Source of the DNA: Candidatus Poribacteria bacterium
GTDB lineage: Bacteria; Poribacteria; WGA-4E; PCPOR2b
Assembly (NCBI GenBank): GCA_965116925.1
Contig: OZ220744.1
Span: 704,001 to 768,000 of the forward strand
Length of the DNA: 64,000 bases
Direction of reading: 5' to 3'
How positions within the stretch are numbered: the first letter of the stretch is position 1; each line of letters opens with the position of its first letter. The notes below the pieces were generated by a model. The model saw nothing but the letters and a program-made list of their open reading frames with translations. It had not been told where the DNA came from and did no database searches. Of this stretch, positions 24,761-61,126 are shown in pieces. The translations under genes and the position numbers were made by a program.

Positions 24761-24981
24761 TATAGTAGATTTTAGAATTAATGGGACACGCCAAACCGGT
24801 GCGGTTACATGAAAATTAAAAAAACAGTTCGGTAATTTGCTAACGACGCCGGCGCGGTTGAAAACCGCGCCTACCGTGTGTTTCGAGGAAAATCGGGATT
24901 ACCGATTTAAATACTTAAATCTCATCAAACCGCACCTACCGGGGGAGCGCAAGTGTTTCTTTATCTTTTGAATTTACTATA
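24761..24981. mobile_element. MITE family A (TA-flanked) with nested family B at 24809-24925
   Basis: TATAGTAGATTTTAGAAT...GAATTTACTATA; other A copies at 13239-13316, 24173-24275, 40582-40794, 46808-47026, 51302-51403, 52130-52283. Confidence 0.8.
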
Positions 24982-25007
24982 GTTTCGACATCAAAACCTA
25001 AAACAAA

Positions 25008-26009
25008 TTGGCTATGCTCAACCGGAAACCGTGTTTCGTTATCTTCTTATGTCTTATGAATTTGATGAGCGTCTGCGATGCCGATGAAAATGACGCTTGG
25101 GACAAACCCTTGGAATCTTTCACACTGGAGGGACATAGTGCTGCAGTATTTTCTGTTGTTTTCTCCCCCGATGGTGAAATTTTGGCAAGCGGAAGCAGCG
25201 ATAAGACGGTCAAGCTGTGGGACGTGAACACTCGGAAATTGAAACGAACGCTGGAGGGACATGCCGAGATGGTGACGGCAGTCGGTTTCTCGCCAGACGG
25301 AAAGACGCTAGCGAGCGGGAGTTGGGACAAAACTGTACAGCTATGGGACATACAGACAGGAAAGCAGAAAGCGGTGCTAAAACACAGCGGTCGGGTGCAT
25401 GCGTTAGCCTTCTCAGGGAGTGGAGCGATACTCGCAAGTGGAGATTCTGACGAGATAGTGAGGTTATGGAACGCACAGACCGGTGGGCTGAGACAAACGC
25501 TAACGGGGAGCAATGGTCCAGTGTTAGCAGTTGCCTTCTCGCCCGATGGCAGAACGCTGGCGAGCGGAGGCGAACTGGATAACACCGTGGTCAGACTATG
25601 GGATGTACAGACCGGGAGGTTAGAAAGAACGCTAAAATGGCGGAGAGTTGAGGCTGTGAGAGGAATAGCTTTTTCTCCTGATGGGCTGATCTTAGCAAAC
25701 GGGAGCAGTCGCCCGGAAGAAAATACAATAAGATTCTGGGACACGCGGACATGGGAACCGGTCCGAGCGGTCACAGGGCATCGGCAGGGAGTGACCTCCG
25801 TAGTTTTCTCACCTGACAACAAAATTCTGGCGAGTGGAAGTTGGGACAGGCATGTACAATTGTGGGATGTACAAACCGGAGGGTTCATGCAGGCGTTGAG
25901 TGGGCATAGCGGTGCGGTATTTTCTGTTGTTTTCTCGCCCGATGGCAAAATGTTGGCGAGTGGAAGTGCTGACAAGACTGTGAGACTGTGGAAAATCGCT
26001 ATGCAGTAA
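25008..26009 (+). CDS. WD40-repeat beta-propeller protein with putative signal peptide
   Basis: Seven GH...FSPDG..LASGS.D..V.LW repeats; hydrophobic N-terminus. Confidence 0.93.
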   Translation: MAMLNRKPCFVIFLCLMNLMSVCDADENDAWDKPLESFTLEGHSAAVFSVVFSPDGEILASGSSDKTVKLWDVNTRKLKRTLEGHAEMVTAVGFSPDGKTLASGSWDKTVQLWDIQTGKQKAVLKHSGRVHALAFSGSGAILASGDSDEIVRLWNAQTGGLRQTLTGSNGPVLAVAFSPDGRTLASGGELDNTVVRLWDVQTGRLERTLKWRRVEAVRGIAFSPDGLILANGSSRPEENTIRFWDTRTWEPVRAVTGHRQGVTSVVFSPDNKILASGSWDRHVQLWDVQTGGFMQALSGHSGAVFSVVFSPDGKMLASGSADKTVRLWKIAMQ

Positions 26010-26038
26010 AATTGGGTGTATACAAAGGAATCCGACTA

Positions 26039-34051: not shown

Positions 34052-34611
34052 TGTACGTCCTTTCCAAACAGGATTGGTTCATGCACTAATGGCGCGAAGC
34101 GCAATTCGATTTGTAGGTCGGTAATTTATCGTCTGGCTCATGAATTCATTGCTCACCTTTTTGCTTTTAACATTTTTCCTCTCTGAATCGGATATGACAG
34201 GAAAATGTCGCGGGACAATTATGAGGATCTTACTATAACACAAGCTGCTAGATAACCTGTAAGTCGAGTTTTCATGCCCGATACCTATCAGAAGCGACCG
34301 AATTGACGACACACATGTCACCCCTCAGGGGCTTGGGGGAATTGGTTTACAGATGTGCTATACACATATCGCCCCGCTGGGGCTTTGTAGATCGGGCAAG
34401 ATGCCCGACCTACGGGTATAAGGGTTAATTTTATCGATCCACACATCTCTAGCAACTTAGGTTATTTTATTTCACCAACAACGTAGGTTATTGTTCCGGA
34501 AAAATATCACTTACAAATTGTTATAATTCTAACGGTTGCCTACAATGATACCAACGCCTACTAGTTCTTGGCAAATTAAATTTGTAGCTAATCGTCCAAT
34601 ATTGAGATATT

Positions 34612-34702
34612 GGCTCATATAAAAAGAAAGTGCAAAATGCGAAGCGCGGGCGGGGAGACCCCGCCCCTACGGTTTCTGTTGCACCCTTTCTTAACATGAG
34701 CC
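34612..34702. mobile_element. MITE family D (IS1595-like ends) copy 1
   Basis: GGCTCAT...ATGAGCC TIR; exact 8-bp TSD GAGATATT. Confidence 0.85.
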
Positions 34703-34717
34703 GAGATATTAAGTAAA

Positions 34718-36091
34718 ATGCAATCTATTCCAAGCATACCCTTACGTCAAAATCTACCGCAGCCGCAGCTAATCCGTCAACTCCATGCGTTCGCGGCAGA
34801 GCGAGGGGTTCAACTCTACCTTGTCGGCGGTTCCGTCCGAGCCTTGCTACTTAACCGGTCCCTCACGGATCTTGATTTCGCGCTTGCTGATGATGCGATT
34901 GTTTTTGCCCAAGCCTTCGCGGATAAAATTGGTGAGGCGTTTGTCAAATTGGAAGAACAACCACCAATCGCACGGATTGTCATCAGAGAAACGCGGCTCA
35001 CCTTAGACTTCGCCGGATTTCGTGCCGAGACTTTGGAGGCAGATTTGCGGCTGCGCGATTTGACAATCAACGCAATGGCACTGGATCTTTCATTACTCTT
35101 GACAAAGCCGGCGGTGAATTTGATTGATCCGTGCGGCGGTTTCTCCGACCTCAAAGCGCAAACGCTGCGCTTCCCAAGCGAAAGGGTAGTAATAGATGAT
35201 CCGTTACGGCTGCTGAGGGTATACCGTTTTGCGGCGCAGTTGGGGTTTGAAATCCCTGAAGTGACAATCGCTTTCGTTCGCCGACATAGGGATCGGTTGC
35301 CACAGGTTTCATCTGAACGCATTTGCGATGAATTGATTAAAATATTAAACGTTAAAAATGCGACTGCTTATCTGCGCCGAATGGACAAAACGCGCCTCCT
35401 TTCGCAAGTTATCCCAGAAATTGAGAAGATACGCGGGTTAGGGCAGGACACTCTTGATCATTCGCTGCTCGGTCTCGAAATGTTTGAGACAGAACCAACA
35501 CCGGATGTACTACAACCATATCAATCGCAAATTCAAGCATACCTGCGCGAAGAACTAGTTTACGATCTAGACCGGGGACAGATTCTCAAGCTAGCTCTGT
35601 TACTGTACAAAGGCGGAACAAAAATGGCTGTCCGAATAACGAATCGTTTGCGGCTCGGCAGGAGAGCCGCACAGTTGATGCGCTGCCTTGTACAGAATCA
35701 CCTGTCCTTGATGGATTTGATCAGTACTGATGGTCAAACAGAGCGTCGGACGACGATTCGTTTCTTAAGGGACACCGGAGACGACTGGTTAGGTGTCCTT
35801 TTGCTATTTTATGCAAATCTCCGAGCGTCGCATGGGGATATGCCTCAAGTCAATGAACTGATGAAACAGATTGCCGACCTGTATTATGGCGAAATCTGTC
35901 CGATAATAGAGCAAGGTAGATTAATCACTGGCGACGATATTTTACAAGCATTTGGGGTGGTGCCCGGTGTCAAAATTGGACGTATTCTACGGCACATTGA
36001 GGATCTTCAGTTTGAAGGAGAGATCCAAACACCAGAGGAGGCATTGGAGGCTGCACGCGCCTTTTTGCAAAACAATGGAACGGAGACTTAG
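34718..36091 (+). CDS. Class II tRNA nucleotidyltransferase, probably CC-adding
   Basis: LVGGSVR, DLDF, RDLTINAMA, DDPLRLLR, SERI; flexible loop absent. Confidence 0.85.
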   Translation: MQSIPSIPLRQNLPQPQLIRQLHAFAAERGVQLYLVGGSVRALLLNRSLTDLDFALADDAIVFAQAFADKIGEAFVKLEEQPPIARIVIRETRLTLDFAGFRAETLEADLRLRDLTINAMALDLSLLLTKPAVNLIDPCGGFSDLKAQTLRFPSERVVIDDPLRLLRVYRFAAQLGFEIPEVTIAFVRRHRDRLPQVSSERICDELIKILNVKNATAYLRRMDKTRLLSQVIPEIEKIRGLGQDTLDHSLLGLEMFETEPTPDVLQPYQSQIQAYLREELVYDLDRGQILKLALLLYKGGTKMAVRITNRLRLGRRAAQLMRCLVQNHLSLMDLISTDGQTERRTTIRFLRDTGDDWLGVLLLFYANLRASHGDMPQVNELMKQIADLYYGEICPIIEQGRLITGDDILQAFGVVPGVKIGRILRHIEDLQFEGEIQTPEEALEAARAFLQNNGTET

Positions 36092-36093
36092 TT

Positions 36094-37179
36094 ATGAAAC
36101 AGATTGAACTACACCCAGAGGATTACCTTCCGGCGGCCCCACCACAGGAGATTGTGCAACGCTATGGTATCGGCATCGTTGGATGTGGGAACATCGCCCG
36201 GAACACACATCTGCCCGCCTATCATAAGTTCGGATATCGCGTCGTTGCGGCTTGCGATGTTATTGAGGAGAAAGCGCGAGCGGTTGCCGAAGAATACGGT
36301 ATCCCCTTCTGGACTGCCAATATTGAAGCGATAATTGATCGGCGTGATGTCGATATTGTTGATCTCGCAGTGCGCCCGGAAGATCGCTTGGCAGCGGTTG
36401 AACGGTTGGCACGTGCTGGTAAGCACATTCTTTCTCAAAAGCCACTGGCACCGACATTAGCGGAAGCGGAACGCATTGTGGAGGTATGTGAAGAAGCCGG
36501 TATCACGCTGATGATCAACCAGCAAGCACGTTGGGCACCGTATCACACCGCGATGAAGGTACTGATTGACCGCGGCTGTTTCGGTCACCTATACAGCGTC
36601 TTACATGTCCATCGCCAGTTTCAAGATAGCAGTGATTCCACGTGGTTGACAACGCCTGACTTCACCATCATAGATAACGGGATTCATTATGTCGATCTCT
36701 CCCGCTACTTTACTGGTCGGACGCCGCGATGGGTGAAAACGACAACCACCCGTGTTCCGGGTCAGTATGCGATGGATCCGATGATCTACTCAATCCTTTG
36801 CGAATATGAACCGGCTGACTTGATGTCTACACTGCATTTCAACAACATCGCGCCGGCACTTCACCATAGCCCGTATCTGTGGCACATTGATGGCACAGAA
36901 GCCTCCGCTTCGATCGCGCGATATGGACCTCTCCGTGATGGACGGACGGAGCTCACCATTTCGTTCAAAGCGGATCCTGACCGGCGGCAGGTATTTCATA
37001 TCCACGGCAGCTGGTTTCCCGATGCGTGGGGCGGGACGATGGGAGAGATGCAGCGTGCGCTCGCAGCGGGTGTCGAACCGCAAGTCTCAGGACGGGACAA
37101 CTTGAATTCCATCCGTATCACCAATGCTGCGGTTGAATCGTCCAAGAGCGGTCAGACGGTAGAAATTCCGCCTGAGTAG
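36094..37179 (+). CDS. Gfo/Idh/MocA oxidoreductase
   Basis: GIVGCGNIA, GKHILSQKP, DNGIHYVD. Confidence 0.9.
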   Translation: MKQIELHPEDYLPAAPPQEIVQRYGIGIVGCGNIARNTHLPAYHKFGYRVVAACDVIEEKARAVAEEYGIPFWTANIEAIIDRRDVDIVDLAVRPEDRLAAVERLARAGKHILSQKPLAPTLAEAERIVEVCEEAGITLMINQQARWAPYHTAMKVLIDRGCFGHLYSVLHVHRQFQDSSDSTWLTTPDFTIIDNGIHYVDLSRYFTGRTPRWVKTTTTRVPGQYAMDPMIYSILCEYEPADLMSTLHFNNIAPALHHSPYLWHIDGTEASASIARYGPLRDGRTELTISFKADPDRRQVFHIHGSWFPDAWGGTMGEMQRALAAGVEPQVSGRDNLNSIRITNAAVESSKSGQTVEIPPE

Positions 37180-37322
37180 GACTTACGCAAATTTAGCACA
37201 CGAGGGGTAGATTTTTGATTTTTAACCCCCTAAATCACCTAACCCCTAACCCCCTAGCCCCCCTTATCAGGGGGGAATTGTTGGTCTGGCTTATCAGGAG
37301 AAAACCTTTGTCAGGGGACTTC
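37177..37322. repeat. Family C left end plus CCCCCTTATCAGGGGG hairpin repeat
   Basis: TAGGACTTACGCA start; similar to 58409-58511 and 40333-40472. Confidence 0.65.
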
Positions 37323-37391
37323 TAGTGAGTAGATAATGAGCAGTTGAACGAGAACACCCAATCGAAAACAGAAAAACAGAGAGGATAAAAA

Positions 37392-38333
37392 ATGGAGTAT
37401 TTCCACGTCGATATACATCAACGCCCTGAACCGAAGTCAATTGCACCCCGGTTTACCAGCGTCAAGATACGGTGGAAGGGACGAGCGATAACCGATTTGA
37501 CTCAGGGCATTCACCGGTGTTATCTGTTCCCGGTATACTCCCCTGCGGGTGTATCGCTGACCTCTGAAAGCCCGGTAGATCACCCGCATCACAATTCAAT
37601 CACCGTCAGTGCTGATGTCTTTTTTGTCCAGTTGCCGCCACTCTCTCCAGCGATTTCCACATTAGTAGAGGAGGCGACATATAATTTCTACGTCAACAAT
37701 ATTTTCCAAGGGCGTGCCCCGGGCAGGATTTGGGTGGTTGGAGTTGACAGCGAGGAGATTTCCGAGAATCATCTTAGGGTTGTGCAGAGTATTCAGTGGC
37801 AGGGTCCTGAAGAGTGGGGTGCACCGGCGGACATTGGTCGTCGGGTATTGGCTGAGGAGACGCGGACCATCGACATCTATCCGGGCGAAGTTGCTAACGT
37901 CATAGACATCCGATCTCAGCTGAGGCCAACTGATTGGGATGTCACCATCGGTACGACGCGCCACGCTTATTTTACGATTCGGATGGCGGATGAGCTGCGT
38001 CCTGCCAACGGCGGAAAACTAATTGATTCGGAAGGCAGAGTCGGTCAGGAGGAGGTGTGTAATCAGCTTGCGGATTGGGTTGATATATCGGGTCCCGCGG
38101 TGGGCGGTCAAAAAGCAGGGATAACTGTGATTCCACACGCTTCCGCCACTGGCATCGAATGGTTCTGTTTTGACTACGGGACGATGTTAGTCAACCCATT
38201 TATGAGAGAGAAGGGGATACTGAATCGGGGTGATGAATTAGATCTCGGCATACGCATCTTGGCTCACGATGGGGATGCGACAGAGGCGGGTGTGGTGGAT
38301 CTGTATGCAGCGTTCAAACGGGAAGGGAAATAG
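37392..38333 (+). CDS. PmoA-family (DUF6807-like) protein of unknown function
   Basis: YLFPVYSPAG, DHPHHNS, IRMA, WVDISG pattern. Confidence 0.65.
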   Translation: MEYFHVDIHQRPEPKSIAPRFTSVKIRWKGRAITDLTQGIHRCYLFPVYSPAGVSLTSESPVDHPHHNSITVSADVFFVQLPPLSPAISTLVEEATYNFYVNNIFQGRAPGRIWVVGVDSEEISENHLRVVQSIQWQGPEEWGAPADIGRRVLAEETRTIDIYPGEVANVIDIRSQLRPTDWDVTIGTTRHAYFTIRMADELRPANGGKLIDSEGRVGQEEVCNQLADWVDISGPAVGGQKAGITVIPHASATGIEWFCFDYGTMLVNPFMREKGILNRGDELDLGIRILAHDGDATEAGVVDLYAAFKREGK

Positions 38334-38454
38334 TCTGTACTCCCCTCTATCCCCTCGCAAGCAGGAGGAAGGAAGAACGCGCAATGAATTGCGCTACTAC
38401 AAACTGAAGTGCGTAACTCCTAAATCTGTTCCGCTTTCCACTCTCCAGTGTTTG

Positions 38455-40218
38455 CTATCCTGGGGCGATCACGGTCATGTCCCAATCACCGAGGGCGAGC
38501 AGCGGTTTTGTCCAATCGCCAAGCGGGGGTTCTCCCGTCTGCACCCACTCCGCAATTTCTTCACGATGCCCAAGACGCCGGAGTGCGTTCCACATCGGCT
38601 GGTAGTTCGCTCGACCGCCCGGACCGGCGCAATCCCAGAAGAAGAGGCGATCTGCGCCTGCGCCGTAGAGCATGTGAGCGTTGCGCCGAAAATCTTCGGG
38701 ACTCTGATGGCGGGGCATGACATTCGGTGCAAGTACGCATGAAGTTCCCTGAGTCGCACGGACAAAAGGCTGAAGCTGTGATGGATTTGACCAGATGTCC
38801 TCTTCGGTTGGCATTGCGAGTGGTGCTGGACTGTACGGAATCAGGACATCGATTAATCCTTCTTTCGCCCAAGCAGCGACATCAAGACCGAAGTAGCGAT
38901 TCTCCTCCTCTAAACCCAACACGCACGCGGATACCTCAATCCTCCGCCCCCGTCCTTGTTCGCGTGTAATTGCATCCATTTCTTCGCGCACACGGCGCAT
39001 AAAGTCTGTCATGATTCCTCCGCAAAACTCAAGCCACGTTGGATCAGTATCCGCAAGTTCTCGCGGGTCGCTGCCGTGGGCGGCTGCAAACGCCTCAAGC
39101 AGCGGTGTTTCGTATGCGATGTAGGGCGGGCGTCGGTTGAAGAGCAGACAGACTCCATCGATCGGGTATTCAGCCATTTCGCGTAGCAGTGCCAGACAGT
39201 AGTCCTGTATCTCACGAAAGGCGTAGGAGAGCCGCGGCAAGCGTTTTCCGTCTCGGTCAACACAGTGTAGCTCTGGATGGTTCTGGTAGTACCCTCCTCG
39301 GAAATTATGGTCGAGCGGGGGTGGATAGGTCCACCCCGCCAGTCGATAGGCTGCGTGGAATTCAAGACCGATAGCGTGTGTGTGTTCGAGTGCTATTGCA
39401 AACGGGTCAAGTCCTGCCTTGAGGTAGCTGCGCCAGCTTTCTGCTACCAGTCGGTCACCGACCCGCGCAAACTCTATGATATTAGGAATATCGGGCGTGC
39501 GTCCAATTTTGGTGGGGTAATGCAGGACATCGCCGCTCCCGCTCTCCCAATACATGCGTGAAAAGTCGGTGTCTCGATACGGCTCAACCTCGCGGCGCAA
39601 TTCTTCAGCGGAGGTAGGACGATAGAGGAAGTGCGGTCCGTGTGAGTCGTTATGCGCGAAGAGACCATGGTGTGCACCACCTCCTTGTTCGGCGTGTAGT
39701 GCATCAACTTCGGTCGGAGTGAGTGGCACGAGTTTGATGTAGGCGATGCGTACACCGCCGCATTGCACTGAACCGAAGCCGTCCCCTGGATCAATGCGGC
39801 GCGCCAATTGGCAGAAGTCAACTGCCTGTCCGTTTAGATCCGCGACCTTCCAGAAAATCTCTTGGAGCTGCTTGCGCCGTAGGTGGTGTCCTCCGGTGTC
39901 CCATGTAAGTACGGAGTAAGTGTTATCGCCGCTTAACTTGACGAGTGCTTGAGGTAATCCCTCCTCGCTGGTTGGGTGTATACCGATGGAGATTGCATGC
40001 CAGCCGTTTATGCTTAGCGGGTAACGGATTTCTGGGGCACGGGTTTCTGGACCTGCCTTTAGCATGACACCGGAAAAGCCTTCAGCTTCATAGGGGATGG
40101 TGTGCCAGCGGTGGGCCCCGCCGTCGGGAGAGAGTCTGTCTGCGGGTTGGCAGCGTTCTAGGTCGGTCACATAGATTGGTGAGGCACTGAAACTGCGATC
40201 GGCAATGAAGTCAGCCAT
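38455..40218 (-). CDS. Glycoside hydrolase-like TIM-barrel protein (GHL10-like)
   Basis: HTHAIGLEFHA, LSYAFREIQDY, YPIDGVCLLFNR, GADRLFFWD; ATG 40218 behind GGAGG. Confidence 0.5.
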   Translation of the reverse strand: MADFIADRSFSASPIYVTDLERCQPADRLSPDGGAHRWHTIPYEAEGFSGVMLKAGPETRAPEIRYPLSINGWHAISIGIHPTSEEGLPQALVKLSGDNTYSVLTWDTGGHHLRRKQLQEIFWKVADLNGQAVDFCQLARRIDPGDGFGSVQCGGVRIAYIKLVPLTPTEVDALHAEQGGGAHHGLFAHNDSHGPHFLYRPTSAEELRREVEPYRDTDFSRMYWESGSGDVLHYPTKIGRTPDIPNIIEFARVGDRLVAESWRSYLKAGLDPFAIALEHTHAIGLEFHAAYRLAGWTYPPPLDHNFRGGYYQNHPELHCVDRDGKRLPRLSYAFREIQDYCLALLREMAEYPIDGVCLLFNRRPPYIAYETPLLEAFAAAHGSDPRELADTDPTWLEFCGGIMTDFMRRVREEMDAITREQGRGRRIEVSACVLGLEEENRYFGLDVAAWAKEGLIDVLIPYSPAPLAMPTEEDIWSNPSQLQPFVRATQGTSCVLAPNVMPRHQSPEDFRRNAHMLYGAGADRLFFWDCAGPGGRANYQPMWNALRRLGHREEIAEWVQTGEPPLGDWTKPLLALGDWDMTVIAPG

Positions 40219-40905: not shown

Positions 40906-41022
40906 ATGAAAATTAAAAAAATAATTCGGTAATTTGCTAGCGACGCCGGCGCGGTTTTCAACCGCGCCTACCGTATGTTTCGAGGAAAATAGGGATTACC
41001 GATTTAAATACTTAAACTTCAT
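40906..41022. mobile_element. Family B 117-bp element
   Basis: ATGAAAATTAA...AAACTTCAT inside the AGCACTCC-TCT-GGAGTGCT hairpin; other copies at 24809-24925, 46856-46972, 60933-61049. Confidence 0.85.
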
Positions 41023-41054
41023 CTGGAGTGCTGGTTTTGGGACATACCATCTTC

Positions 41055-41435
41055 TATAGACATATCGCTCCTTCGGAGCGAAAGCCGAATCTTATACCCA
41101 ACGGGCGAGGTGACCTCGCCCCTACGATTACAAATATGCCTCACATAACTGTCAACACGCCCTAGACGCTTATACCTTCAAATGCCCTTCATAGATATAT
41201 CGCTCCTCCAGAGCGAAAGCCGAATCCTATACCCAACGGGCGAGGTGACCTCGCCCCTACGATTACAGACATGCCTCACATAACTGTCAACACGCCCTAG
41301 ACGCTTATACCTTCAAATGCCCTTCATAGATATATCGCTCCTCCAGAGCGAAAGCCGAATCCTATACCCAACGGGCGAGGTGACCTCGCCCCTACGATTA
41401 CAAACATGCCTCATATAACTGTCAACAGAACCTAG
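41055..41435. repeat. Tandem repeat, 135-bp unit, about 2.8 copies
   Basis: CCTAG at 41161, 41296, 41431; each unit has two hairpins and a family E end. Confidence 0.9.
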
Positions 41436-45139: not shown

Positions 45140-45197
45140 CCTGGACTTCCTCTATCTGGTGTTTTTCTATATTTATCATGAACCCATTTGCTGCGAC

Positions 45198-45947: not shown

Positions 45948-45948
45948 G

Positions 45949-46701
45949 TTACGCGCGTCCGACATAGGGCATCTTTGTCGCCATGACGGTTATGAATAGT
46001 ACGTTTGCCTCTAAGGGTAGGCTTGCCATGAACACGACAGCACCTGCAATATCGTCCGTGTCCATCCGTGGCTCGACCATGAGCGTTCCATTCGGTTGGA
46101 GGCTGCCGGTATCGCTTCTCTGTTCGGCGTCGATCGATGCATTGCCGATGTCAATTTGTCCACACGCAATATCGTATTTACGTCCGTCAAGGGAGGTCGA
46201 TTTTGTTAGCCCGGTCAGCGCGTGTTTGGTGGAAGCGTAGGGTGCGGAGTTGACGCGCGGCACGTGTGCTGATACGGAACCGTTATTTATGATGCGCCCG
46301 CCTCTGGGGTCTTGATCCTTCATAATCTTGAACGCTTCTTGCGTACACAGGAATGAGCCGGTTAGGTTGGTGTCCACGACCGTTTTCCACTGCTCGTAGG
46401 TCAGGTCTTCTAGGTTGACGCCCGGCGCACCGACTCCTGCGTTATTAAAGAGTAGGTCGAGCCTGCCAAAGGTCTCTTTGGTTTTGGCGAATAGGGCTTT
46501 GATGGAGTCGTGATCTGTTACATCTGTGGGGACAATCAATGTTCGCGAACTCGCTTCTCCCGCTTGATTGACCGTATCCTCTAGTGCTTCCGGGCGTCGC
46601 CCAGCTAGTGTAACGGAATACCCTTCATTTAGCAGTGCAAGCACCGTTCGCTGACCGATGTTGGAACCGGCACCTGTAACGATAGCAACTTTTGTACTCA
46701 T
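45949..46701 (-). CDS. Short-chain dehydrogenase/reductase
   Basis: [17 protein letters not shown]. Confidence 0.93.
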
Positions 46702-47244
46702 ATGTTATATCTCCTCATTTTATTCTATGGATTGGATATTGTTTCGAGACGATGAAACGTGAAGCGTAAAACGTGAAAGCTCTTTGTTCATTGGTACATT
46801 GGTTCATTATCGTGGATCTTGGAATTAATGAGACACTCCAAACCGGTACGGTTAGATGAAGATAAAAAAACAGTTCGGTAATTTGCTAGCGACGCCGGCG
46901 CGGTTGAAAACCGCGCCTACCGTATGTTTGGAGGAAAATAGGGATTACCGATTTAAATACTTACAATCTCATGAAACCGCACCTACCGGGGGCGAAAGTG
47001 TCTATTTATTTTTGGTGTTCACCATAAGTTTTTAGCACGGACCGGCGGGGAAACCAGATGCCCCGCCTACGATTTTATAGAGTAAATCCGGGCGGGGTGC
47101 AACAGAAACCGAGTTTTCGAGAAAAAACTCGGTTTCTCCTGAAAATAACGGATTTCCCCTGCCCTGATAAATCGAGACCAGGGTACATTCTAATCTATTG
47201 GAACCGACCCCTCCGTTTCGATGGCCCATCAACACGATTCGGCA

Positions 47245-47492
47245 ATTTGGCAGGGCACTGGCAGGTCCAAAAAAAAATTTAACCTCACATCGGAGGGGTC
47301 ATCATTAGCCGATGTCTCTCTGAACCCTGATGGGGCCTAGCTTCAGCGCATTTGTAGATTTGTACCACGCAAGAGAAGGGGCGTCCAGACGGCTTTTTGA
47401 CCTGCCAAATACGCACTGTTTATGAACCGTTTTTCACTGAAATAGCACCATAACCAAGCCAAATGGCAGGATTTGGCAGGGCACTGACAGGT
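47245..47492. repeat. Cluster of TGGCAGG motifs including a 22-bp direct repeat
   Basis: ATTTGGCAGGGCACTG(G/A)CAGGT at 47245 and 47471; extra copies at 47464 and inverted at 47401. Confidence 0.6.
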
Positions 47493-48015
47493 GAAAAAAC
47501 TATTTTACGCTCTATAAACATGTCGCCCCTCTGGGGCTAAATGAACCAACACACCTTTTCCCGTCCCGATTTGATTGAGGCTCCCAAGAATCGGGATTTT
47601 CACGCATCATGTATTGTGTTTCTATCATAGCACCGGAGGGAGAGTAGGTCAAGTGAAAATTCATAGTGCCACAGAAACCAAGTTTTCCAAAAAAAACTCG
47701 GTTTCTCTTCCCGTTTTGCACTTTCTTTTTATATGAGGGGTGTGCATGTGTAGCCATCTTAGTAGATTAACCCTATTGCTGTGCATACACATTGCGCTCC
47801 GCTGGAGCGCAGGCATTGACTTTATCGCCTTCTATAGACATATCGCTCCGCTGGAGCGAAGGTTTCTGTCGAATCACCGGGACTTCTGTGTATTCAACTT
47901 GTTGAAGGAACGTAAGTCCGGTAGCAGCTTTGTTTGCTTATCAATGTTTTCTGGGTAATCAGCTGACTCCGTGATTCAAACAATAATGATGCACCCCCCT
48001 CTTTTTATATGAATC

Positions 48016-48393
48016 TCACCTCTCCTTCTCAAAGTTCTCGACTAACTCAACCAACACCGCATAGTTCGTTGGATCCTTATCACAATCCGCAGCGTGTGTG
48101 GACAGCGGTAAGCCCTGTTTTTTACGATTCTTACAGCTGCAAACTAGTCCCGCTGCTGTGAGGGGGGCAAGATGCCATCGAAAATCCGGTTCGACACTAT
48201 CCATCACAACGTAAGGAATTGTATCCTCAGGCACCCCATCCCACCATTTTGTCTTTGGGTTATAGCGCAGCCCTTCAACATCCACCCATTCTCCCGGTGC
48301 ATGGGATCGTTTCTCAACTGGGGACTGTTGAGGTATGTCATACCGTTTTAGTGTGTTTCGTTTAACTCGCCTCACTTTCCACTCTCCTTTCAT
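48016..48393 (-). CDS. Hypothetical protein
   Basis: ORF overlapping the upstream gene end; no recognised motif. Confidence 0.55.
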   Translation of the reverse strand: MKGEWKVRRVKRNTLKRYDIPQQSPVEKRSHAPGEWVDVEGLRYNPKTKWWDGVPEDTIPYVVMDSVEPDFRWHLAPLTAAGLVCSCKNRKKQGLPLSTHAADCDKDPTNYAVLVELVENFEKER

Positions 48394-48829
48394 CGTCTGA
48401 AATCAGACCGAGCAGCTCCTGTACCCACATACGCGTTTCCCGATAAACCATCACAACCCTTCTGAGCTCCTTCCAATCGACCTCATCTGTTTTTTGCAGT
48501 GCGGCTAATTTCTGACCCACCAAACACTGAATCTGCTGTGCATGTTCAAAGTCCATATCGGTAAAGGCGTTTACTTCCTCTTGCCTTTTTTGGATCAGTT
48601 GATTAAGGGCTTCCTGTGCCTGTTTTTTATCAAATGCTTCTGCACGCTCTACCCAATGATAATCGCTGCTATACCGATACAATGTCCGAGGTGCACTTTT
48701 TTTTCCATTGACATTTGCTTGGCATAGTTTCTCAACGGATCGAGGTGTTGGCATTCCGAGGTAAGCCTGAAAACACTCAAAAGCACGTGGACTTTCTCCA
48801 TCAATGGGTGTGTCGAATTGTATACCCAT
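48362..48829 (-). CDS. Phage terminase small subunit-like hypothetical protein
   Basis: GESPRAFECFQAY...RS...WVERAEAFD recalls phage TerS-like proteins; AGGAGG RBS. Confidence 0.45.
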   Translation of the reverse strand: MGIQFDTPIDGESPRAFECFQAYLGMPTPRSVEKLCQANVNGKKSAPRTLYRYSSDYHWVERAEAFDKKQAQEALNQLIQKRQEEVNAFTDMDFEHAQQIQCLVGQKLAALQKTDEVDWKELRRVVMVYRETRMWVQELLGLISDDERRVESEAS

Positions 48830-49160
48830 AGTGTAATACCCTCCTTTTGCCCAATTATATCATATTGTTATGCAAGATGCAACGACGTGATATGGTCGTT
48901 ATGGTCATTTATGGTAGATTTTAGAATTAATTGAAGGGTGTTCATAATTATATTGTCTGAATCGCGGATTAGGAAGATGACACAGATTACACGGATTATT
49001 GCCTCGATGAATCCCCGGCCGGGACAGGCGGAACGGAATAGGCGGGATTCAGGGCGATCTGAATCGGGATTTTCAGGATCTGTGTCCCTCCTAAACCGTG
49101 CGTGTGACTTTTACTCCGCACGACTTTCATAGTCATAAATTGATGGTGTCGTTTAATGAT

Positions 49161-49529
49161 TAGGGCGTGTTGACATTTTGAAGCTGCTCATTCAGCAGAC
49201 GCTGTAAGCATCAGGCAAGATGCCATAAGTAGCGCGAACTGTTAGTTTGCTGGCGGGGATCACAATCTAACAGATCGTGGTACAAAAGGAGATTGTCGGT
49301 TGAGATTCATATCTCGACAGAATATCCAGCGTGCCGTGCAACAATCCGGGTTTATTGAGTCAAAACTATCGCGCTATGTCCTTAGGTGGTGTCGATTTTG
49401 GAAAATCGACCTACAGAAATCCGAAGCCATCTCTGATGTGTGAACAAAAGGTTGGGTGACCTAACCCCTACGAAGGGTTATGTGTTTGTGTGCCCCCTTG
49501 ATTGTCTGATTGCGATGAAATGTCAACAG
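49161..49529. mobile_element. MITE family E (IS5-like ends), right end truncated
   Basis: TAGGGCGTGTTGACATT start; collinear with 53363-53856. Confidence 0.75.
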
Positions 49530-49810
49530 CGCGGGTTACGGCATACGGAGTATGCCTATTACTATTCTATAGACATGCCGCTCCTCTGGGGCTTTGGGTA
49601 TGGCGCGGGTTACGGCATACGGAGTATGCCTATTACTATTCTATAGACATGTCGCCCCGCTGGGGCTAAATGAATCGCTGAACTAATGATTTTTACGTTT
49701 CACGTTTCACGTTATCAACAGCTGCAAACTAGCACCATCGGTTTTTTTAACCCCCCTAGCCCCCCTTATCAGGGGGGACTTATGGACTAGCTGCGTAAGT
49801 CCTATCCGTT

Positions 49811-50608
49811 TTATCCGACCCGTGCGCTTAAGCCGCCATCAACGGGCAGAAGTACCCCTGTGATGTAGCGTGCATCGTCGGAGGCGAGGAACGCGGCTGC
49901 AGCAGCGACATCCCAGCCGGTGCCCATCTTTTGGAGAAGCGGTACGTCTTCGTCGCGTTCCTTACGGATAACTTCGTGGCTCACTCCGCGCTCTGCTACC
50001 CGTCGCTCAATCGCCATAGGGGTATCCATCAGACCGGGTAAGATAGCGTTTACGCGAACCCCGTATTCCGCATTTTCGATGGCGAGGTTTTGTGTCATCG
50101 CATTGATTGCGGCTTTGCTAGTTTTGTATGCGAGCATGGTCGGTCGCGTGCAGAGCGACGCCGTCGAGGAGATATTGATAATGACTCCCGATCCTTGAGC
50201 TCGCATCACCGGCAGGACGTGCTTGATGGTGAGAAACATGCCTTTGAGGTTGACCTCCATCAATAGTTCCCAATTTGCCTCAGTCACATCAGTCGTGTCA
50301 GCATCACCCGCTGCGATCCCGACGTTGTTATGCAGGATATCGATACGTCCGTAGCGAGCAACACAGTCTTCGACGATCATCTGACAGTCCGCTTCAACGG
50401 TGATGTCCGCACCGAAAACTGAGGCTTTACCGTCAACTGCTTTTATCATCTGGGCGGTATCTTCGGCGGATTCGGGTCGTTTGTCAACGAGAAGCACCCG
50501 CGCCCCCTCCTTTGCGAAACGGATCGCGGTTGCCCTGCCGTTGCCGATGGTTTCGCCCGGTGTTTGTCCGGCACCAACGACGATTGCAACCTTGTTACTA
50601 AGCCCCAT
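49811..50608 (-). CDS. Short-chain dehydrogenase/reductase
   Basis: VVGAG...IGNG, HNNVG, YKTSK, PVDGG. Confidence 0.92.
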   Translation of the reverse strand: MGLSNKVAIVVGAGQTPGETIGNGRATAIRFAKEGARVLLVDKRPESAEDTAQMIKAVDGKASVFGADITVEADCQMIVEDCVARYGRIDILHNNVGIAAGDADTTDVTEANWELLMEVNLKGMFLTIKHVLPVMRAQGSGVIINISSTASLCTRPTMLAYKTSKAAINAMTQNLAIENAEYGVRVNAILPGLMDTPMAIERRVAERGVSHEVIRKERDEDVPLLQKMGTGWDVAAAAAFLASDDARYITGVLLPVDGGLSARVG

Positions 50609-50638
50609 ACACAATCTCCTTTCGTTCAAAACGTTCTG

Positions 50639-51247
50639 TTAATCTTTCTTTGCTTCAGTACCAACGAACGGTGCACTCTCACCGGTGGGGACCGGCACCT
50701 CGAATACATTTAGTGTCATTGACACGAGTGTGTAGTAACCGAGCAGGATTACTAGCTCCGCAACCCCTGTTTCACCGAGCAGCTCAATCGCTTCAGCGTA
50801 CAGATTGTCTGAGACGCGATGTTCGTCGAGCAATTCGCGGGCAAAGTTGTAGACCACCGCCTCGGTTGGATTAGAGAAATCTGGGAGTGTTTCCGCTTTG
50901 ATGCTTTCTATTACCCCTTCGTCCAAACCCTCGCGTCTTGCGATTCTTTCGTGCGCCCACCACTCGTATTGTGCCTTCCATTTGGCGGCAACGATTAAAA
51001 TTGCGAGTTCTCGTAGTTGTGGCAGGAGAGTGCTTTCAAAACGGACGGTTTCGCCGAGCCGTTGTGCTGCATCGCCCAGCACTGGGCTTCTGAGCCACGG
51101 ATTGAATGGACCGCTCATCCCTCCTTCTGAGTTGAGGAGATCTTCGGGAGCCCGTCCTTCGCCGCGCTTGCCACCGGTGATGTTTTTGAAAAGACGCTCT
51201 TGCGCTTCGGTAAAGTTTTCAGGCGTGATGTATGATATTCGACTCAT
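50639..51247 (-). CDS. Carboxymuconolactone decarboxylase/AhpD-like protein
   Basis: GPFNPWLRSP, RELAIL, YEWWAH, GYYTLV. Confidence 0.85.
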   Translation of the reverse strand: MSRISYITPENFTEAQERLFKNITGGKRGEGRAPEDLLNSEGGMSGPFNPWLRSPVLGDAAQRLGETVRFESTLLPQLRELAILIVAAKWKAQYEWWAHERIARREGLDEGVIESIKAETLPDFSNPTEAVVYNFARELLDEHRVSDNLYAEAIELLGETGVAELVILLGYYTLVSMTLNVFEVPVPTGESAPFVGTEAKKD

Positions 51248-51640
51248 TACTCGATTCCTTTTTGCTTACGTTAATGGTCAGGAGCTGCACATTTTCAGTT
51301 CTATAGTGGATCTTAGAATTAATGAGACACGCCAAACCGGTGCGGTTAGAAACCGCACCTACCGGGGGACGAAAGTGTCTATTTATTTTTAGAATTCACC
51401 ATAAAAGCAGAGAGGGACGCAGTTTCCCACGATAAGATCGGCATTCAATACAACTTGAATACTATAGACATGTCGCCCCGCTGGGGCTAAATGCACTAAT
51501 GCACCGCATCCCGTTTCACGCTTCGTTTTCTATTCTGTAAATCCTTCAATCCAGAGAATCCTGATTCAGACAATAATTATGAGCACGCCGCATATAACCA
51601 TCCGAATGATTTCGATGAACTGATGTGAAGAAAAGCGAAA

Positions 51641-51731
51641 GGCTCATGTAAAAAGAAAGTGCAAAGCACGAAGAGAAACCGAGTTTTCAAGAAAAAACTC
51701 GGTTTCTTTGCACTAAATCTTAACATGAGTG
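51641..51731. mobile_element. MITE family D copy 2
   Basis: GGCTCATG...CATGAGTG; exact 8-bp TSD AAGCGAAA. Confidence 0.85.
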
Positions 51732-51893
51732 AAGCGAAATTACTGTATCACGCCCCCTACACGGCGTCAAGCGTAAAGTAGTGCAACGGGCGGGGGGACC
51801 CCGCCCCTACGATTGGGGTAGGTCTTCATTTGCAGCCGTAAGGATTGGGTCTCCCAACCTATTAAGCATGGGTATTTTGTCGAGATATGAATA

Positions 51894-52039
51894 TAGATCT
51901 ACAGTTGATGCCGGGCAAGTACAGGTTGGAAACCTGTACCCACGAGGGGATAAGGTGGAGCCCTCATTGTCGTTGAGAGGGATTTGTTTCTAGCCTTTCA
52001 ACCCAACCTACGGATTAGCAAATGTCAACCGTAGATCTG
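51894..52039. mobile_element. Putative MITE (family I) with hairpin cargo
   Basis: TAGATCTACAGTTGA / TCAACCGTAGATCTG inverted ends; single copy, no clear TSD. Confidence 0.45.
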
Positions 52040-52302
52040 AAGTTTTTGATAGCGTCCCCACCACATTTGTGATACCATCCGAGAGAACAAAAATATACCG
52101 TGTAAGACTTTGGCACATTTTCATAAGTTTATAGTGGATCTTAGAATTAATGAGACACGCCAAACCGGTGCGGGGAAAAACGCACCGAATCGGCGCAGTT
52201 AAAAACAGTGCCTACCAAATCCCGATTTATCGAGATTGAAACCGAGTGGCGAAAGTGTCTATTTATTTTTAGAATTCACCATAATAGATGCAGGAGGAGA
52301 CA

Positions 52303-53361
52303 ATGAAGACCTACCGAGTGGCGATTGTGGGGCTGGGGCGTATGGGCAGTACACTTGATCAATCAATTGCGTCGGCGTCCCATGTGAGTGAAAGGCTTGA
52401 AGTGGTGGCAGGAGCGGAAACGATTCCGGAACGGCGGACGGCATTCCAAGAGAAATGGGGCGTAGAAACGGTTTATGAAGACTATCAAGAGATGATTGAG
52501 AAGGAGCAGCCGGATCTGGTGGGGGTGTGTACCACGGCAACAGGTTTGCCCAAACCGGGCAATCGTGCGCCATCGACCGCTTTTCGGGACGACGCACATG
52601 CGGATATGGCGGTTTATGCAGCGAACGCCGGTGTGCCGATGCTGTTCGTGGAGAAGGCGATATCCTGTTCTGTGGAGAAGGCTGATGAAGTCCTCGAAGC
52701 CTGTCGCAAACATAGCACCGCGTTCAACACCGGTGTATTAAGGCGTTTTAGCGGGCGGTACAAGCGGATACGGGAGATGATTGCGCGAGGGGATATCGGT
52801 GAACCGCAATCGGCGGTGGTCTATGGAGCTGCCAGCCTGATGCACGTGCACATCCACTGGATGGATACCCTTTCCTACCTGCTCGGCGATCCAGAGATTG
52901 CAGCAGTACGCGGGGATCTGTTGCCCAGAAGTATCGAGGTTAAGGACAATCGGCTGGAGGAAGATCCGCAGGGACTTTTTCAGCTTGTTTTCGCCAACGG
53001 AATTGAAGCGTGGTCGGTGCCGGATGGGGGGCGAGAGTATGAGATCGTCGGGACGGAAGGCACCCTCCGATCGATGTGGGATGGTGCAGCGGTGACTTTC
53101 CGGAAGCTGAATGGCGCCGATGATTGGCCCCTACAATGGGAAGGGGAGGCATTTCCAGAGGAGACTCCGGTCAGCACGGTTGTTTCTTTGCTAGAGGACT
53201 TGGTAAACTCGCATGAATCGGGAAAGCCGTCAATTGGCAATATTGAGGTCACTCATCCAATCACAGAGGCGTGCATCACTGTAGCGGAGAGCCATCGGCA
53301 GGGTGGTCGGTGGATTGATTTACCGATGCAGAATCGGGATTTGTATGTGTTTCATGTTTAG
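52303..53361 (+). CDS. Gfo/Idh/MocA oxidoreductase
   Basis: AIVGLGRMG, VEKA, IHWMD. Confidence 0.88.
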   Translation: MKTYRVAIVGLGRMGSTLDQSIASASHVSERLEVVAGAETIPERRTAFQEKWGVETVYEDYQEMIEKEQPDLVGVCTTATGLPKPGNRAPSTAFRDDAHADMAVYAANAGVPMLFVEKAISCSVEKADEVLEACRKHSTAFNTGVLRRFSGRYKRIREMIARGDIGEPQSAVVYGAASLMHVHIHWMDTLSYLLGDPEIAAVRGDLLPRSIEVKDNRLEEDPQGLFQLVFANGIEAWSVPDGGREYEIVGTEGTLRSMWDGAAVTFRKLNGADDWPLQWEGEAFPEETPVSTVVSLLEDLVNSHESGKPSIGNIEVTHPITEACITVAESHRQGGRWIDLPMQNRDLYVFHV

Positions 53362-53362
53362 C

Positions 53363-53856
53363 TAGGGCGTGTTGACATTTTGATGCTGCTTATTCGGCAA
53401 ACGCTGTAAGCAGCAGGCAATTTGCCAAATGTAGCGCGAACTGTTAGTTTGCAAGCGGGGATCACAATCTAACAGATCGTGGTACAAAAGTAGATTGTAG
53501 GTCGAGATTCATATCTCAACAGAATACATAGCGTGGCGTGCAACAATCCGGGTTGATTGAGCCCAAACTATCGCGCGATATTCTCAGTGGTGTCGATTTT
53601 GGAAAATTGACCTACAGAAATCCGAAGCTATCTCTGATGTGTGAACAAAGGGTTGGGAGACCCAACCCCTACGAAGGGCTGTGAATAAAGGGTTGGGAGA
53701 CCCAACCCCTACGAAGGGCTGTGAATAAAGGGTTGGGAGACCCAACCCCTACGAAGGGCTGTGAACAAAGGGTTGGGAGACTCAACCCCTACGAAGGGCT
53801 ATGTGTCTGTGTGCCTTCTTGATTATCTGATTGCGATGAAATGTCAACAGAACCTA
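53363..53856. mobile_element. MITE family E full copy containing a 4 x 40-bp REP tandem (53641-53800)
   Basis: TAGGGCGTGTTGACATT / AATGTCAACAGAACCTA TIR. Confidence 0.8.
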
Positions 53857-58522: not shown

Positions 58523-60460
58523 TTGCAAGAGACCTCTGAACGCAGAAAATATGAGGGCGCGACAGCGCGCGCAATACAGATTGGTCTGTTTTTAGTCGCC
58601 GCCAACGTCTATTGGGTGACACTTGTGGAGATGAAGTACCGTGCGGAGGCGACCGCCCTGCCGATATTCATCTATCCCATCTTTATTCTGTTCTGCCTTG
58701 TCGTTTTCAACAACTGCCTGTCAAAGGTGTGGCAGCGGATCCGTTTATCGCCTGGGGAGCTGCTTACCATCTATTCGATGCTTGTGATTTCGACTTCGAT
58801 TGCGTCGTATGGAATGTTGCAGGACCTGTTCGCCTTCTTCCTTCATCCGTACCAATTCGCCTCGCCCGAAAATGAGTGGAAGGAACTCTTTTTTCATTAT
58901 ATCCCGCCTTGGTTCACCGCCAACGCGCCTCATGACATACTCGCTGAGTACTACGAAGGCGATTCAACGCTTTACAAAGCAAAGCACCTTAACGCTTGGA
59001 TGAGACCCATATTGGTCTGGACAGTCTTCACGTTGGTGTTGCTATATATGCTTCACTGCATGAACACTCTCGTGCGTCGGCAGTGGGTGCAGACGGAACG
59101 ACTGGCGTTTCCGATCATCCAGCTGCCGGTAGCGATGGTGCAATCATCAAGCTTCCTTCGGAACGGTTTTCTATGGGTCGGTTTCGCTATCCCTGCTGTT
59201 CTTGATCTCATGAACGGGTTGCATGTTCTTTATCCCTCCGTGCCATATCTCCATCTCAAGTTGACCTCTATCAGCCAATATTTCTCCGAGAAACCGTGGA
59301 GTGCGGTAGCAGGTACGCGGCTCTCCTTTTATCCGTTCATGATCGGGCTCGGATTTTTCCTGCCGCTTGACCTCTCCTTTACCTGTTGGTTTTTCTATGT
59401 GCTGCGCCGGCTAATCAGTGTGGTGGTCACCTATTTGGGACTTACGCATCTCCCCGGTTTTCCATACTTTCATGAACAAGCTGGCGGTGGTTGGTTCTGC
59501 CTATTCTTTATTGCGGTATGGGCAACACGGAGGCATTTGGCTTTTGTATTTCGGACTGCGTTTTCTGTGACTTCATCGGTTGATGCGGATGAGCCGATGC
59601 GGTATCGAACGGCACTGATCGGGTTGGTGGGCGGATTTCTGTTCATGGCTATCTTCTCCGCTCAAGCTGGTATGTCAATGATTGCTATCCCCATCTTCTT
59701 TGCCCTCTATTTTGCCATCGCCATTGTTATCACCCGTTTACGGGCAGAATTTGGGGCACCTCACAGGATATCCAATAATCCGATGGACGTGATGGTGACC
59801 TGTTTCGGAACGCTGGCTTGGGGTGGGCGCAACCTGACTGTGATGAGTTTCTATCAGTGGTTTAACCGGAGCTATCGTTCACACGCAAATCCGAATCAGT
59901 TTGAACCGCTCAAGATGGCAGAGGTCGCTAATATCAACAGCCGCCGATTGGTTTGGGCGATGATGCTTGGATCTGCTGTCGCTCTTATTGTGGGGATGTG
60001 GACAAACCTGGACATGATGTATCGTGACGGGGCAATTGCACGGGTGTTGTTCTTCAAGATCTGGGTTGCCAATACAGCATTCCGACGTTTGGAAACATGG
60101 CTGTATCATCCGATGCCCGTCGATTCGCTGCGCATGGCGTTTATGGGAGGTGGGATGGTGCTGACCTTGATTTTGTTTGTCTTGCGAATGCGTTTCTTTT
60201 GGTGGCCTCTTCATCCTGCTGGTTATCCACTCGCCCTCAGTTCCTCAATCGATTACTTCTGGTTTACTTTTTTCATTAGCTGGGGGTTAAAAGCGGTTAT
60301 CCTGAAGTATGGCAAAGTTAGGGGGTATCAACGCGCCATTCCGTTCTTCTTCGGCTTGATTTTGGGGGATTTCATCACAGGTGGGCTCTGGATGGTGTAC
60401 GGTGTTTTGACCCAGCAGCAGGTCTATATGATCTACTTGAATGGGGGGACGTGGTATTGA
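58523..60460 (+). CDS. Polytopic membrane protein (DUF6785/DUF6784-like, putative transporter)
   Basis: Many TM segments; QW...ERLAFPI, RLRAEFG, WWPLHPAGY motifs. Confidence 0.7.
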   Translation: MQETSERRKYEGATARAIQIGLFLVAANVYWVTLVEMKYRAEATALPIFIYPIFILFCLVVFNNCLSKVWQRIRLSPGELLTIYSMLVISTSIASYGMLQDLFAFFLHPYQFASPENEWKELFFHYIPPWFTANAPHDILAEYYEGDSTLYKAKHLNAWMRPILVWTVFTLVLLYMLHCMNTLVRRQWVQTERLAFPIIQLPVAMVQSSSFLRNGFLWVGFAIPAVLDLMNGLHVLYPSVPYLHLKLTSISQYFSEKPWSAVAGTRLSFYPFMIGLGFFLPLDLSFTCWFFYVLRRLISVVVTYLGLTHLPGFPYFHEQAGGGWFCLFFIAVWATRRHLAFVFRTAFSVTSSVDADEPMRYRTALIGLVGGFLFMAIFSAQAGMSMIAIPIFFALYFAIAIVITRLRAEFGAPHRISNNPMDVMVTCFGTLAWGGRNLTVMSFYQWFNRSYRSHANPNQFEPLKMAEVANINSRRLVWAMMLGSAVALIVGMWTNLDMMYRDGAIARVLFFKIWVANTAFRRLETWLYHPMPVDSLRMAFMGGGMVLTLILFVLRMRFFWWPLHPAGYPLALSSSIDYFWFTFFISWGLKAVILKYGKVRGYQRAIPFFFGLILGDFITGGLWMVYGVLTQQQVYMIYLNGGTWY

Positions 60461-60629
60461 AAAAATGCGAGCTGTCACCTCCCATCCGAATCTGGTTTTA
60501 TGGAACGTGAAACGTGAAAATTATTTGTTCATTAGTTCATTGAACTGTGCCCCGTAGACATATTGTCCGGTTAGGGTTCTGGGGGATAGCTTGAGTTAAA
60601 CTATATCGACTGTGTTAAACATTATGCAA

Positions 60630-60814
60630 TAGGACTTACGCAGTTGCACGCTCCCCCGCCCTGTTTGGAGAGTCTTAGACTTGCGGTTGGGCGATTTATC
60701 GTTACAGGACACCGTTGCCAACGCCCGATAAATTGGGCAACTCCAGCAGAGACACCCTCAAGGAGTTCGTAGGGAACGCAGATCTGCGTTCCCTACGGAA
60801 GTGCGTAACTCCTA
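60630..60814. mobile_element. MITE family C with different cargo
   Basis: TAGGACTTACGCA / TGCGTAACTCCTA; 6-bp duplication ATGCAA. Confidence 0.75.
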
Positions 60815-61126
60815 ATGCAATAGAAACCGAGTTTTTGGCTGAAGATTAAAAAAACAGTTCGGTAATTTGTTATCGACACCAGCGCGGTTGAAAACCGCGC
60901 CTACCGGGTTGGAGTGAATACGGTGCGGTTGGATGAAAATAAAAAAAACAGTTCGGTAATTTGCTAGCGACGCCGGCGCGGTTTTCAACCGCGCCTACCG
61001 TATGTTTCGAGGAAAATAGGGATTACCGATTTAAATACTTAAACTTCATGCAAAAACTTGGTTATCTTCGTCCCTTGTAATTTCTTTTTACATGAACCCA
61101 CAATTATAAAAAAAGAAGGTGTTTTT

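Follow-up and report, generated by a model that had tools for sequence, protein, structure and literature searches.

Symmetry-axis insertion of a 117-bp miniature element and its IS630-type relative into hairpins of a Candidatus Poribacteria genome

The stretch of DNA analysed here, called the window, comprises 64,000 nucleotides (nt) of the genome of a Candidatus Poribacteria bacterium (contig OZ220744.1, positions 704,001-768,000). It contains four copies of a repeat of exactly 117 bp with the termini ATGAA...TCAT, at the positions given by an earlier reading made from the sequence alone. The repeat is short, non-coding, bounded by terminal inverted repeats (TIRs) and multicopy, and its ends are common to an autonomous insertion sequence (IS), so that it can be called a MITE (miniature inverted-repeat transposable element). 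Its targets are hairpins, mostly of the repetitive extragenic palindrome (REP) type. Positions without a prefix refer to the window, whereas the prefix G000:C1 denotes whole-genome coordinates of the same genome. The features of the window are as follows, no strand being assigned to the empty hairpins.

24761..24981, + strand: TA-ended repeat (presumably Correia-like) that carries the target REP and hosts copy 1; repeat families D3, D5 and D12
24809..24925, + strand: MITE copy 1, 117 bp, at the apex of a GTAG-type REP hairpin with an ACA loop; C duplicated at 24808 and 24926
24851..24871, + strand: REP-like hairpin inside the MITE, with a 9-bp stem and a GAA loop, followed by TAC
40906..41022, + strand: MITE copy 2, 117 bp, in the AGCACTCC-TCT-GGAGTGCT hairpin; C duplicated; empty orthologue in genome G085 (locus L287)
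46808..47026, + strand: TA-ended repeat that hosts copy 3; repeat families D3 and D5
46856..46972, + strand: MITE copy 3, 117 bp, at a REP apex with an AGA loop; G duplicated at 46855 and 46973
60839..60909, + strand: left portion of another, incomplete MITE copy, with C in place of A as first base; outer left junction GAGTTTTT GG
60933..61049, + strand: MITE copy 4, 117 bp; its own two flanks are asymmetric (composite site); the flank on its right, GC AAAAACTT, is complementary to the outer left one
24210..24230: empty target hairpin, REP family of sites 1 and 3, ACA loop
51339..51359: empty target hairpin, REP family of sites 1 and 3, AGA loop
47104..47137: empty hairpin, family of site 4; its centre is the common one of 6 nt and not the 3-nt variant used at site 4

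Copies 1, 2 and 3 each split one hairpin cleanly. With a slash standing for the element, their junctions read GCGGTT AC/CA AACCGC (copy 1, 24809), AGCACTCC TC/CT GGAGTGCT (copy 2, 40906) and ACGGTT AG/GA AACCGC (copy 3, 46856). Copies 1 and 3 lie within a REP-like hairpin that is itself borne by a TA-ended repeat. Site 4 is a composite, in which the partial left part precedes the full copy, and the symmetry is confined to the outer junction, GAGTTTTT GG/GC AAAAACTT. The TIRs are about 28 bp long and imperfect, as had been noted: 18-21 of 28 positions match without gaps in three of the copies, and in copy 3 an A-run displaces the match by one base. The hairpin inside the MITE is also a target, and elsewhere in the genome its apex holds both copies of the full IS and several MITEs.

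Three uninterrupted hairpins in the window had been pointed out as empty targets. Two of them, at 24210-24230 and 51339-51359, match sites 1 and 3; the third, at 47104, belongs to the family of site 4 but has a 6-nt centre. Folding gives the empty hairpins stems of 9-11 bp and loops of 3 nt (z -3.1 to -3.9). The one-base duplication at site 2 is confirmed by the related genome G085, which has an intact empty hairpin there (AGCACTCC TCT GGAGTG); this hairpin is present in one of the 17 orthologous loci examined. Among 19 orthologous loci of site 4, the same hairpin family occurs only in genome G124, with a different 6-nt centre. In window 45960-47420, the read or contig joints that skip the element have sides of at most 40 nt and probably come from paralogous empty repeats, so that the reads give no sign of excision specific to this locus.

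The genome is a single 6.47-Mb contig, in which BLAST located 146 loci, 99 of them with both ends present. There are 94 full-length MITE copies of 115-117 bp, in two subfamilies. A profile of the termini paired 105 elements, and the register tested was that in which two bases are left beside the element on each side. At this register, at least six of eight stem pairs form in 95 of the 105 elements, or in 97 after two end-register corrections. When the register is shifted by one base in either direction, only 2-3 of the 105 reach the same threshold, and in a control with 200,000 random positions 0.46% do so. The symmetry at the insertion register is not chance. The offset from the symmetry axis of all genome copies, a measurement that the sequence-only reading had proposed, thus places 97 of 105 on the axis, and apex insertion with a one-base duplication, at targets that share symmetry rather than sequence, holds throughout this genome and in related ones. 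The eight asymmetric sites are the window composite, one with a damaged end, three at which a TA-ended element adjoins a single hairpin half, and three that are shifted by one base. A third MITE family, 147 bp long, has the same ends and another interior (G000:C1:949181-949327 and 3411772-3411918); its second copy joins two neighbouring REPs apex to apex, the spacer being gone.

Every site seen is an old, selected insertion in repeat-rich intergenic DNA, and random insertions might have been kept only in repeats, or the palindromes might have been made by the insertion itself. Such an origin is hardly credible: selection cannot produce a register precise to a single base, hundreds of intact empty hairpins exist, and an orthologous empty site is already palindromic.

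One base, whatever its kind, is duplicated at 78 of the 97 symmetric sites, and at 41 of 43 outside the main REP family, the one with variable loops. In 69 of the 78 duplicated junctions, removal of the element and of one duplicated base rebuilds a 3-nt loop that is found empty in the genome with the same stems. The duplication is lacking at 19 of the 97 sites, so that the 1-bp rule of the sequence-only reading covers the majority, and there is none on 4-nt T-NN-A centres. The junction TC/CA is best read as a blunt insertion because the empty members of its family mostly read TCCA (46 of 51). At 5 of the 97 sites the two bases on one side of the element and the two on the other are reverse complements of each other (TG/CA, GT/AC). 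Four-nt loops of the main REP family are AGGA or TCCT in 7 of 12 cases, equal to the filled AG/GA junction minus the element, and might be excision footprints; ACCA, the footprint of the commonest filled loop, is absent among the four-nt loops of that family.

The enzyme had been predicted to lie outside the window. The genome contains 12 matches to the IS630 family, none of them in the window. Two are copies of a 1241-bp IS with the same termini (G000:C1:1430426-1431666 and 4122211-4123451), and 1224 of the 1241 bases agree between them. The IS consists of imperfect TIRs of about 28 bp around one transposase gene of about 1.2 kb, its single open reading frame (ORF). In three of the window copies, the MITE ends are identical to those of the IS at 20-27 of 28 positions, the left end at 24-27. 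Both IS copies are located at the apex of the MITE's internal hairpin. One of them is part of a three-layer nest (G000:C1:4122104-4123578, locus L307) in which a REP, a 115-bp MITE, a 117-bp MITE and the full IS each enter the hairpin apex of the next outer layer with a one-base repeat, the junctions being TC/CT, GG/GA and AA/AA. MITE matches occur in 18 of the 28 other genomes of the family. The transposase of the 1241-bp IS appears to move the MITE in trans.

Both IS copies encode an intact 384-residue DDE transposase of the IS630/Tc1-mariner type, with DDE_3 and helix-turn-helix domains in Pfam. It scores 161.8 bits against NF033545 (cut-off 100), and IS630 is the sole NCBIfam family above the cut-off. 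The catalytic residues are D190, D272 and E333; across 78 sequences the last two are invariant and D190 is nearly so. A PDB search with the transposase sequence gave no significant match. The predicted structure, with a mean local confidence (pLDDT) of 94, has a Mos1-like fold, and its best structural matches are Mos1 complexes (VIA Z 13.5, root-mean-square deviation 5.4, 296 aligned). The norm of the IS630 family is a DD34-36E spacing. There are 60 residues between the second D and the E here, and the additional residues, about 25 in number, are modelled as a confident loop without regular structure, positioned between a helix and the strand that precedes the WxNPIE motif.

A search of 151 Poribacteria genomes found a match at 1e-30 in 35. 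Seventy-nine loci were fetched, and three partial loci and six with missing or miscalled ends were left out. Sixty-four of the remaining 70 full IS loci, 44 of which come from one genome, are symmetric: 48 have the duplication, 11 have reverse-complement junctions and 5 are of other types. Genome G097 displays a large expansion of the full IS (141 candidates at first look, 44 loci scored), which makes it a rich supply of insertion sites. For 34 further loci, at 56-77% identity, the pairing reaches 5 of 8 or better in 29, and 27 have the duplication. Three asymmetric loci of genome G076 (L127-L129) have flanks that re-pair cyclically into perfect hairpins with 1-bp repeats, implying flank exchange between IS copies, or misassembly. 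A relative with a DD35E transposase (35-37% identity over residues 1-287) has similar ends, ATGAA..TTCAT, and TA/TA flanks in all six loci, which sit in a short CCTAG context. The D-to-E spacing is 35 in the TA-using relative and 59-60 in the Poribacteria hairpin clade.

The reverse-complement junctions, at 11 of the 64 symmetric IS sites and 5 of the 97 in this genome, look as if one arm had templated both sides, and they could, speculatively, arise from repair templated by one hairpin arm. They would also suit recognition of the hairpin on the lagging-strand template at a replication fork, the second junction being completed by replication or repair. Elements are oriented with the GC skew of their surroundings (in 100-kb half-windows, 51 of 73 and 16 of 21). 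This bias is not specific because the same tendency (63-71%) is seen in five of six other patterns of empty repeats, and most junctions have a two-strand duplication pattern, which makes capture of a single strand very unlikely.

The targets in this genome fall into 26 stem variants, and pooling across genomes gives 14 non-redundant stems. The pooled stems were pre-selected for at least five of six pairs, so that the informative figure is the pairing between arms of different families, which averages 1.46 of 6 and is near chance. The symmetry is therefore specific to each site, and no shared consensus explains it. Loops of 3 nt are found in 853 of 1824 repeated empty hairpins, whereas they account for 77 of the 78 junctions with a duplication. 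Even where most members of a family have a centre of 4 or 6 nt, it is the rare 3-nt variants that are entered, and insertions avoid longer loops. As judged from these sites, the element strongly prefers 3-nt loops, accepts many unrelated stems of about 5-10 bp and integrates on the symmetry axis. No insertion was found in three abundant families of 3-nt-loop hairpins closing GG..CC (111, 91 and 42, or 244 empty copies). The claim that the targets are alike only in symmetry stands as far as unrelated stems are used, but there is some sequence preference in addition to the sparing of these families and the avoidance of longer loops. Target choice is not sequence-blind, although the sites suggest an enzyme that reads the shape of DNA.

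Weak positional biases in the arms could point to a loose preference of the enzyme for symmetric sequence or for bendability in duplex DNA, with no hairpin formed. Mariner enzymes pick bendable targets (PMC5481204), and the CCTAG context of the TA-using relative is in line with such a readout. A positional consensus, however, cannot make each left arm match its own right arm while cross-family pairing stays at chance (1.46 of 6), and the length of the duplication varies with that of the centre, which is unexpected for a fixed duplex stagger. Duplex readout is accordingly judged unlikely.

Most targets are REP-like, and many have a GTAG/CTAC tag, as would be expected if the choice were delegated to a host protein or a REP-associated tyrosine transposase (RAYT, TnpA-REP) that sits on REP hairpins and recruits an ordinary transposase to the apex. 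Five matches to Y1 transposases are present in the genome, and one of them, RAYT-like (G000:C1:701269-701556), is about 2.5 kb before the start of the window. Apparently non-REP palindromes are nevertheless struck at the same register. One of them is an AT-rich palindrome, weak and without recognisable REP character, that lies upstream of a gene and was entered on its axis. The 11 loci orthologous to this non-REP site vary in sequence; the length of that in genome G084 fits a 1-bp duplication and that in G124 is 2 nt longer, which supports the duplication weakly. Furthermore, abundant GTAG-tagged families closing GG..CC are spared, and the behaviour goes with the clade of the transposase even where genomes differ in their repeat families. 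A delegated choice is therefore considered improbable.

Beyond the phylum, the best 80 of 494 matches of a metagenome scan were kept; 62 loci were analysed and 47 were scoreable. Nearly all of the latter have ATG..CAT ends, and 45 of the 47 have the junction T-N/N-A. Blunt entry into TGAA, TTCA, TAAA or TTTA would account for 24 of the junctions, and in the empty hairpins of those metagenome contigs these centres are some of the most frequent. The spacing between the second D and the E is bimodal in the 95 of 153 proteins that could be scored: 33 have 34-36 residues, 60 have 58-63 and 2 have more. In a quick tree, 58 insertion-type rows are split from 18 DD35E rows (Shimodaira-Hasegawa-like approximate likelihood ratio test, 96). 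The Poribacteria clade (support 100) nests inside the insertion-type group, beside three proteins with longer insertions. Plasmid and phage collections gave only distant IS630 elements, with less than 28% identity among the 40 matches listed, or, at stricter cut-offs, nothing, and viral contigs gave one weak match.

The element shares transposase homology, a Mos1-like fold, a single ORF and TIRs of about 28 bp with IS630/Tc1-mariner elements. Members of that family integrate "with a 2 bp stagger, strictly at TA" (PMC5481204). The hairpin clade has no TA requirement, targets hairpin axes and duplicates 1 or 0 bp, and its D-to-E spacing of 60 differs from the canonical 34-36. Because TA is not duplicated and the spacing is not that of DD35E, the element is classed as an IS630-derived subgroup and not as a canonical IS630.

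Correia/RUP-type MITEs derived from IS630 are, like the hairpin MITE, short, non-autonomous and TIR-bounded, with about 100 intergenic copies; they are mobilised in trans, as the hairpin MITE probably is. They insert at TA, as do the other IS630 elements of this genome (L103-L109), which are TA-ended, whereas the hairpin MITE does not. Many targets of the hairpin MITE are hosted by TA-ended relatives of the Correia/RUP type. Further TA-ended, Correia-like repeats, with interchangeable REP cargo or none, are present in the window at 13238-13316, 24172-24275, 40599-40794, 51301-51403 and 52129-52283. The TATRGT ends of L103-L109 are similar to those of these repeats, and the two are likely partners. 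Dense arrays of other hairpin repeats occupy window 34305-53800 and include 301-bp, 135-bp and 40-bp tandem units (families D2, D4, D6 and D9).

IS3-family elements that target REPs, of the IS1397 type, have TG..CA ends and a 3-4-bp duplication. The sequence-only reading had named two of them, IS1397 and ISKpn1, as the established case; the parent here is related to IS630 and is not IS3-like. An IS3-type reading of the termini, with TGA..TCA ends and a 3-bp repeat, is ruled out by the mismatch of the flanks (ACA with TCA, TCA with TCT, AGA with TGA) and by the IS630-type transposase. The element is also not itself a REP/RAYT unit, that is, REP-bounded and moved by an HUH Y1 enzyme, since its TIRs are shared with a DDE-type IS and the REP is internal cargo and target.

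IS elements that target REPs have been described in several families: IS1397, ISKpn1 and ISPsy8 (IS3), ISPa11, ISPpu9, ISPpu10 and IS621 (IS110), ISRm22, and members of the IS4, IS5 and IS256 families (PMC1525189). Like the present element, they enter a fixed point of the palindrome, and ISPsy8 and ISRm22 do so at the symmetry axis (PMC1525189). Each is, however, described with one conserved target consensus and with repeats of 0, 2, 3 or 6 bp (PMC1525189), whereas at least 14 unrelated stems are used here. The main text of that survey names IS3, IS110, IS4, IS256 and IS5, and IS630 is not among them (PMC1525189). IS1272, of the IS1182 family, also chooses unrelated inverted repeats, and a structure-guided targeting, "replacement by structure-dependent transposition", has been proposed for it (PMC5678879). 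Its transposase family is different, and it is reported to delete and replace the stem-loop (PMC5678879), whereas here the stem is kept and split at its axis. An IS1182-type identity is ruled out by the retention of stems on both sides and by NCBIfam, where IS630 alone is above the cut-off. Nothing on hairpin-apex targeting by the IS630 family was found in the literature at the level of titles and the beginnings of abstracts, ISfinder and most subscription papers being outside that search; prior cataloguing in either is possible.

A single rule fits the different junctions: each flank keeps two bases of the centre, so that TA gives a 2-bp duplication, a triloop gives 1 bp and T-NN-A gives none. 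The best explanation is probably that the transposase has abandoned its TA target and that its dimer binds either two extruded hairpins or a bubble of unpaired bases with paired arms on both sides. A dimer on hairpin tips or on a bubble is the simplest reading because the arms can be almost any complementary pair. Mos1 bends its target, unpairs the TA and flips out the target adenines (PMC5481204), and an unpaired centre is therefore a plausible next step. In the mechanism proposed, the dimer would dock on the extruded pair (the cruciform) or on the loop bubble, and the two 3' ends of the transposon would be joined to different strands, each at a distance of two nucleotides 5' of the downstream stem arm, after which the gap would be filled by host repair. 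The insertion of about 25 residues between D272 and E333 may help to hold the looped target.

Several observations weigh against this explanation. Inside the main REP family just 37 of the 54 symmetric sites have the duplication, and 14 junctions of that family are not accounted for. Three sites are one base off the register and have no duplication. The four-nt-loop rule was not borne out in genomes G097 and G044, where the predicted AGCA or AACT centres are absent among 2, 13 and 4 matches. The arms are biased (in 28 arm readings there is no C at -2 and no G at -4, and a pyrimidine occupies -3 in 21). For a cruciform to be extruded stably, stems of 5-9 bp are short. Just 19 of the 47 metagenome loci are symmetric at the threshold of 6 of 8 pairs, which is likely due to chimeric short-read flanks, and 5 of the 47 have TA/TA junctions. 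The proteins closest to the Poribacteria clade (L164, L166 and L170, spacing 65-69) have non-palindromic TT/TA or TA/TA flanks. Since these insertion-bearing proteins and the five metagenome loci use TA-like flanks, the insertion is associated with hairpin targeting but does not seem to be enough for it; L164, L166 and L170 might represent a reversion to TA targeting. Cruciform capture and the role of the insertion are, moreover, inferred from sequence; the structure-guided integration first suggested for these repeats is supported as regards the apex position, the usual 1-bp duplication and targets alike in symmetry.

A stronger form of the capture proposal, with about an even chance of being correct, is that a widespread and apparently undescribed DD58-63E clade derived from IS630 encodes a single-protein DDE integrase that reads secondary structure: it would dock two cruciform tips, the length of the loop would set the duplication, and the insertion would switch the target from TA to hairpin. 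If this is true, landing sites could be designed from any short palindrome with a 3-nt loop, and the extrusion of hairpins in vivo could be read from maps of insertions.

The IS630/Tc1/mariner group is the standard example of strict TA targeting and has supplied widely used integration tools. By their termini, targets and transposase, the MITE and its IS are part of a hairpin-targeting branch of this family. TA-using relatives with shared ends, and a discrete difference of about 25 residues, make a change of target specificity and stagger in a DDE enzyme testable, and the extrusion of short REP palindromes in vivo likewise becomes a testable question. REP hairpins may serve as safe and abundant intergenic landing sites, and the MITE would carry and spread its own landing pad. 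The finding explains the nested repeat structures in this lineage of sponge symbionts, in which a DDE element spreads REP hairpins that act as its own landing sites.

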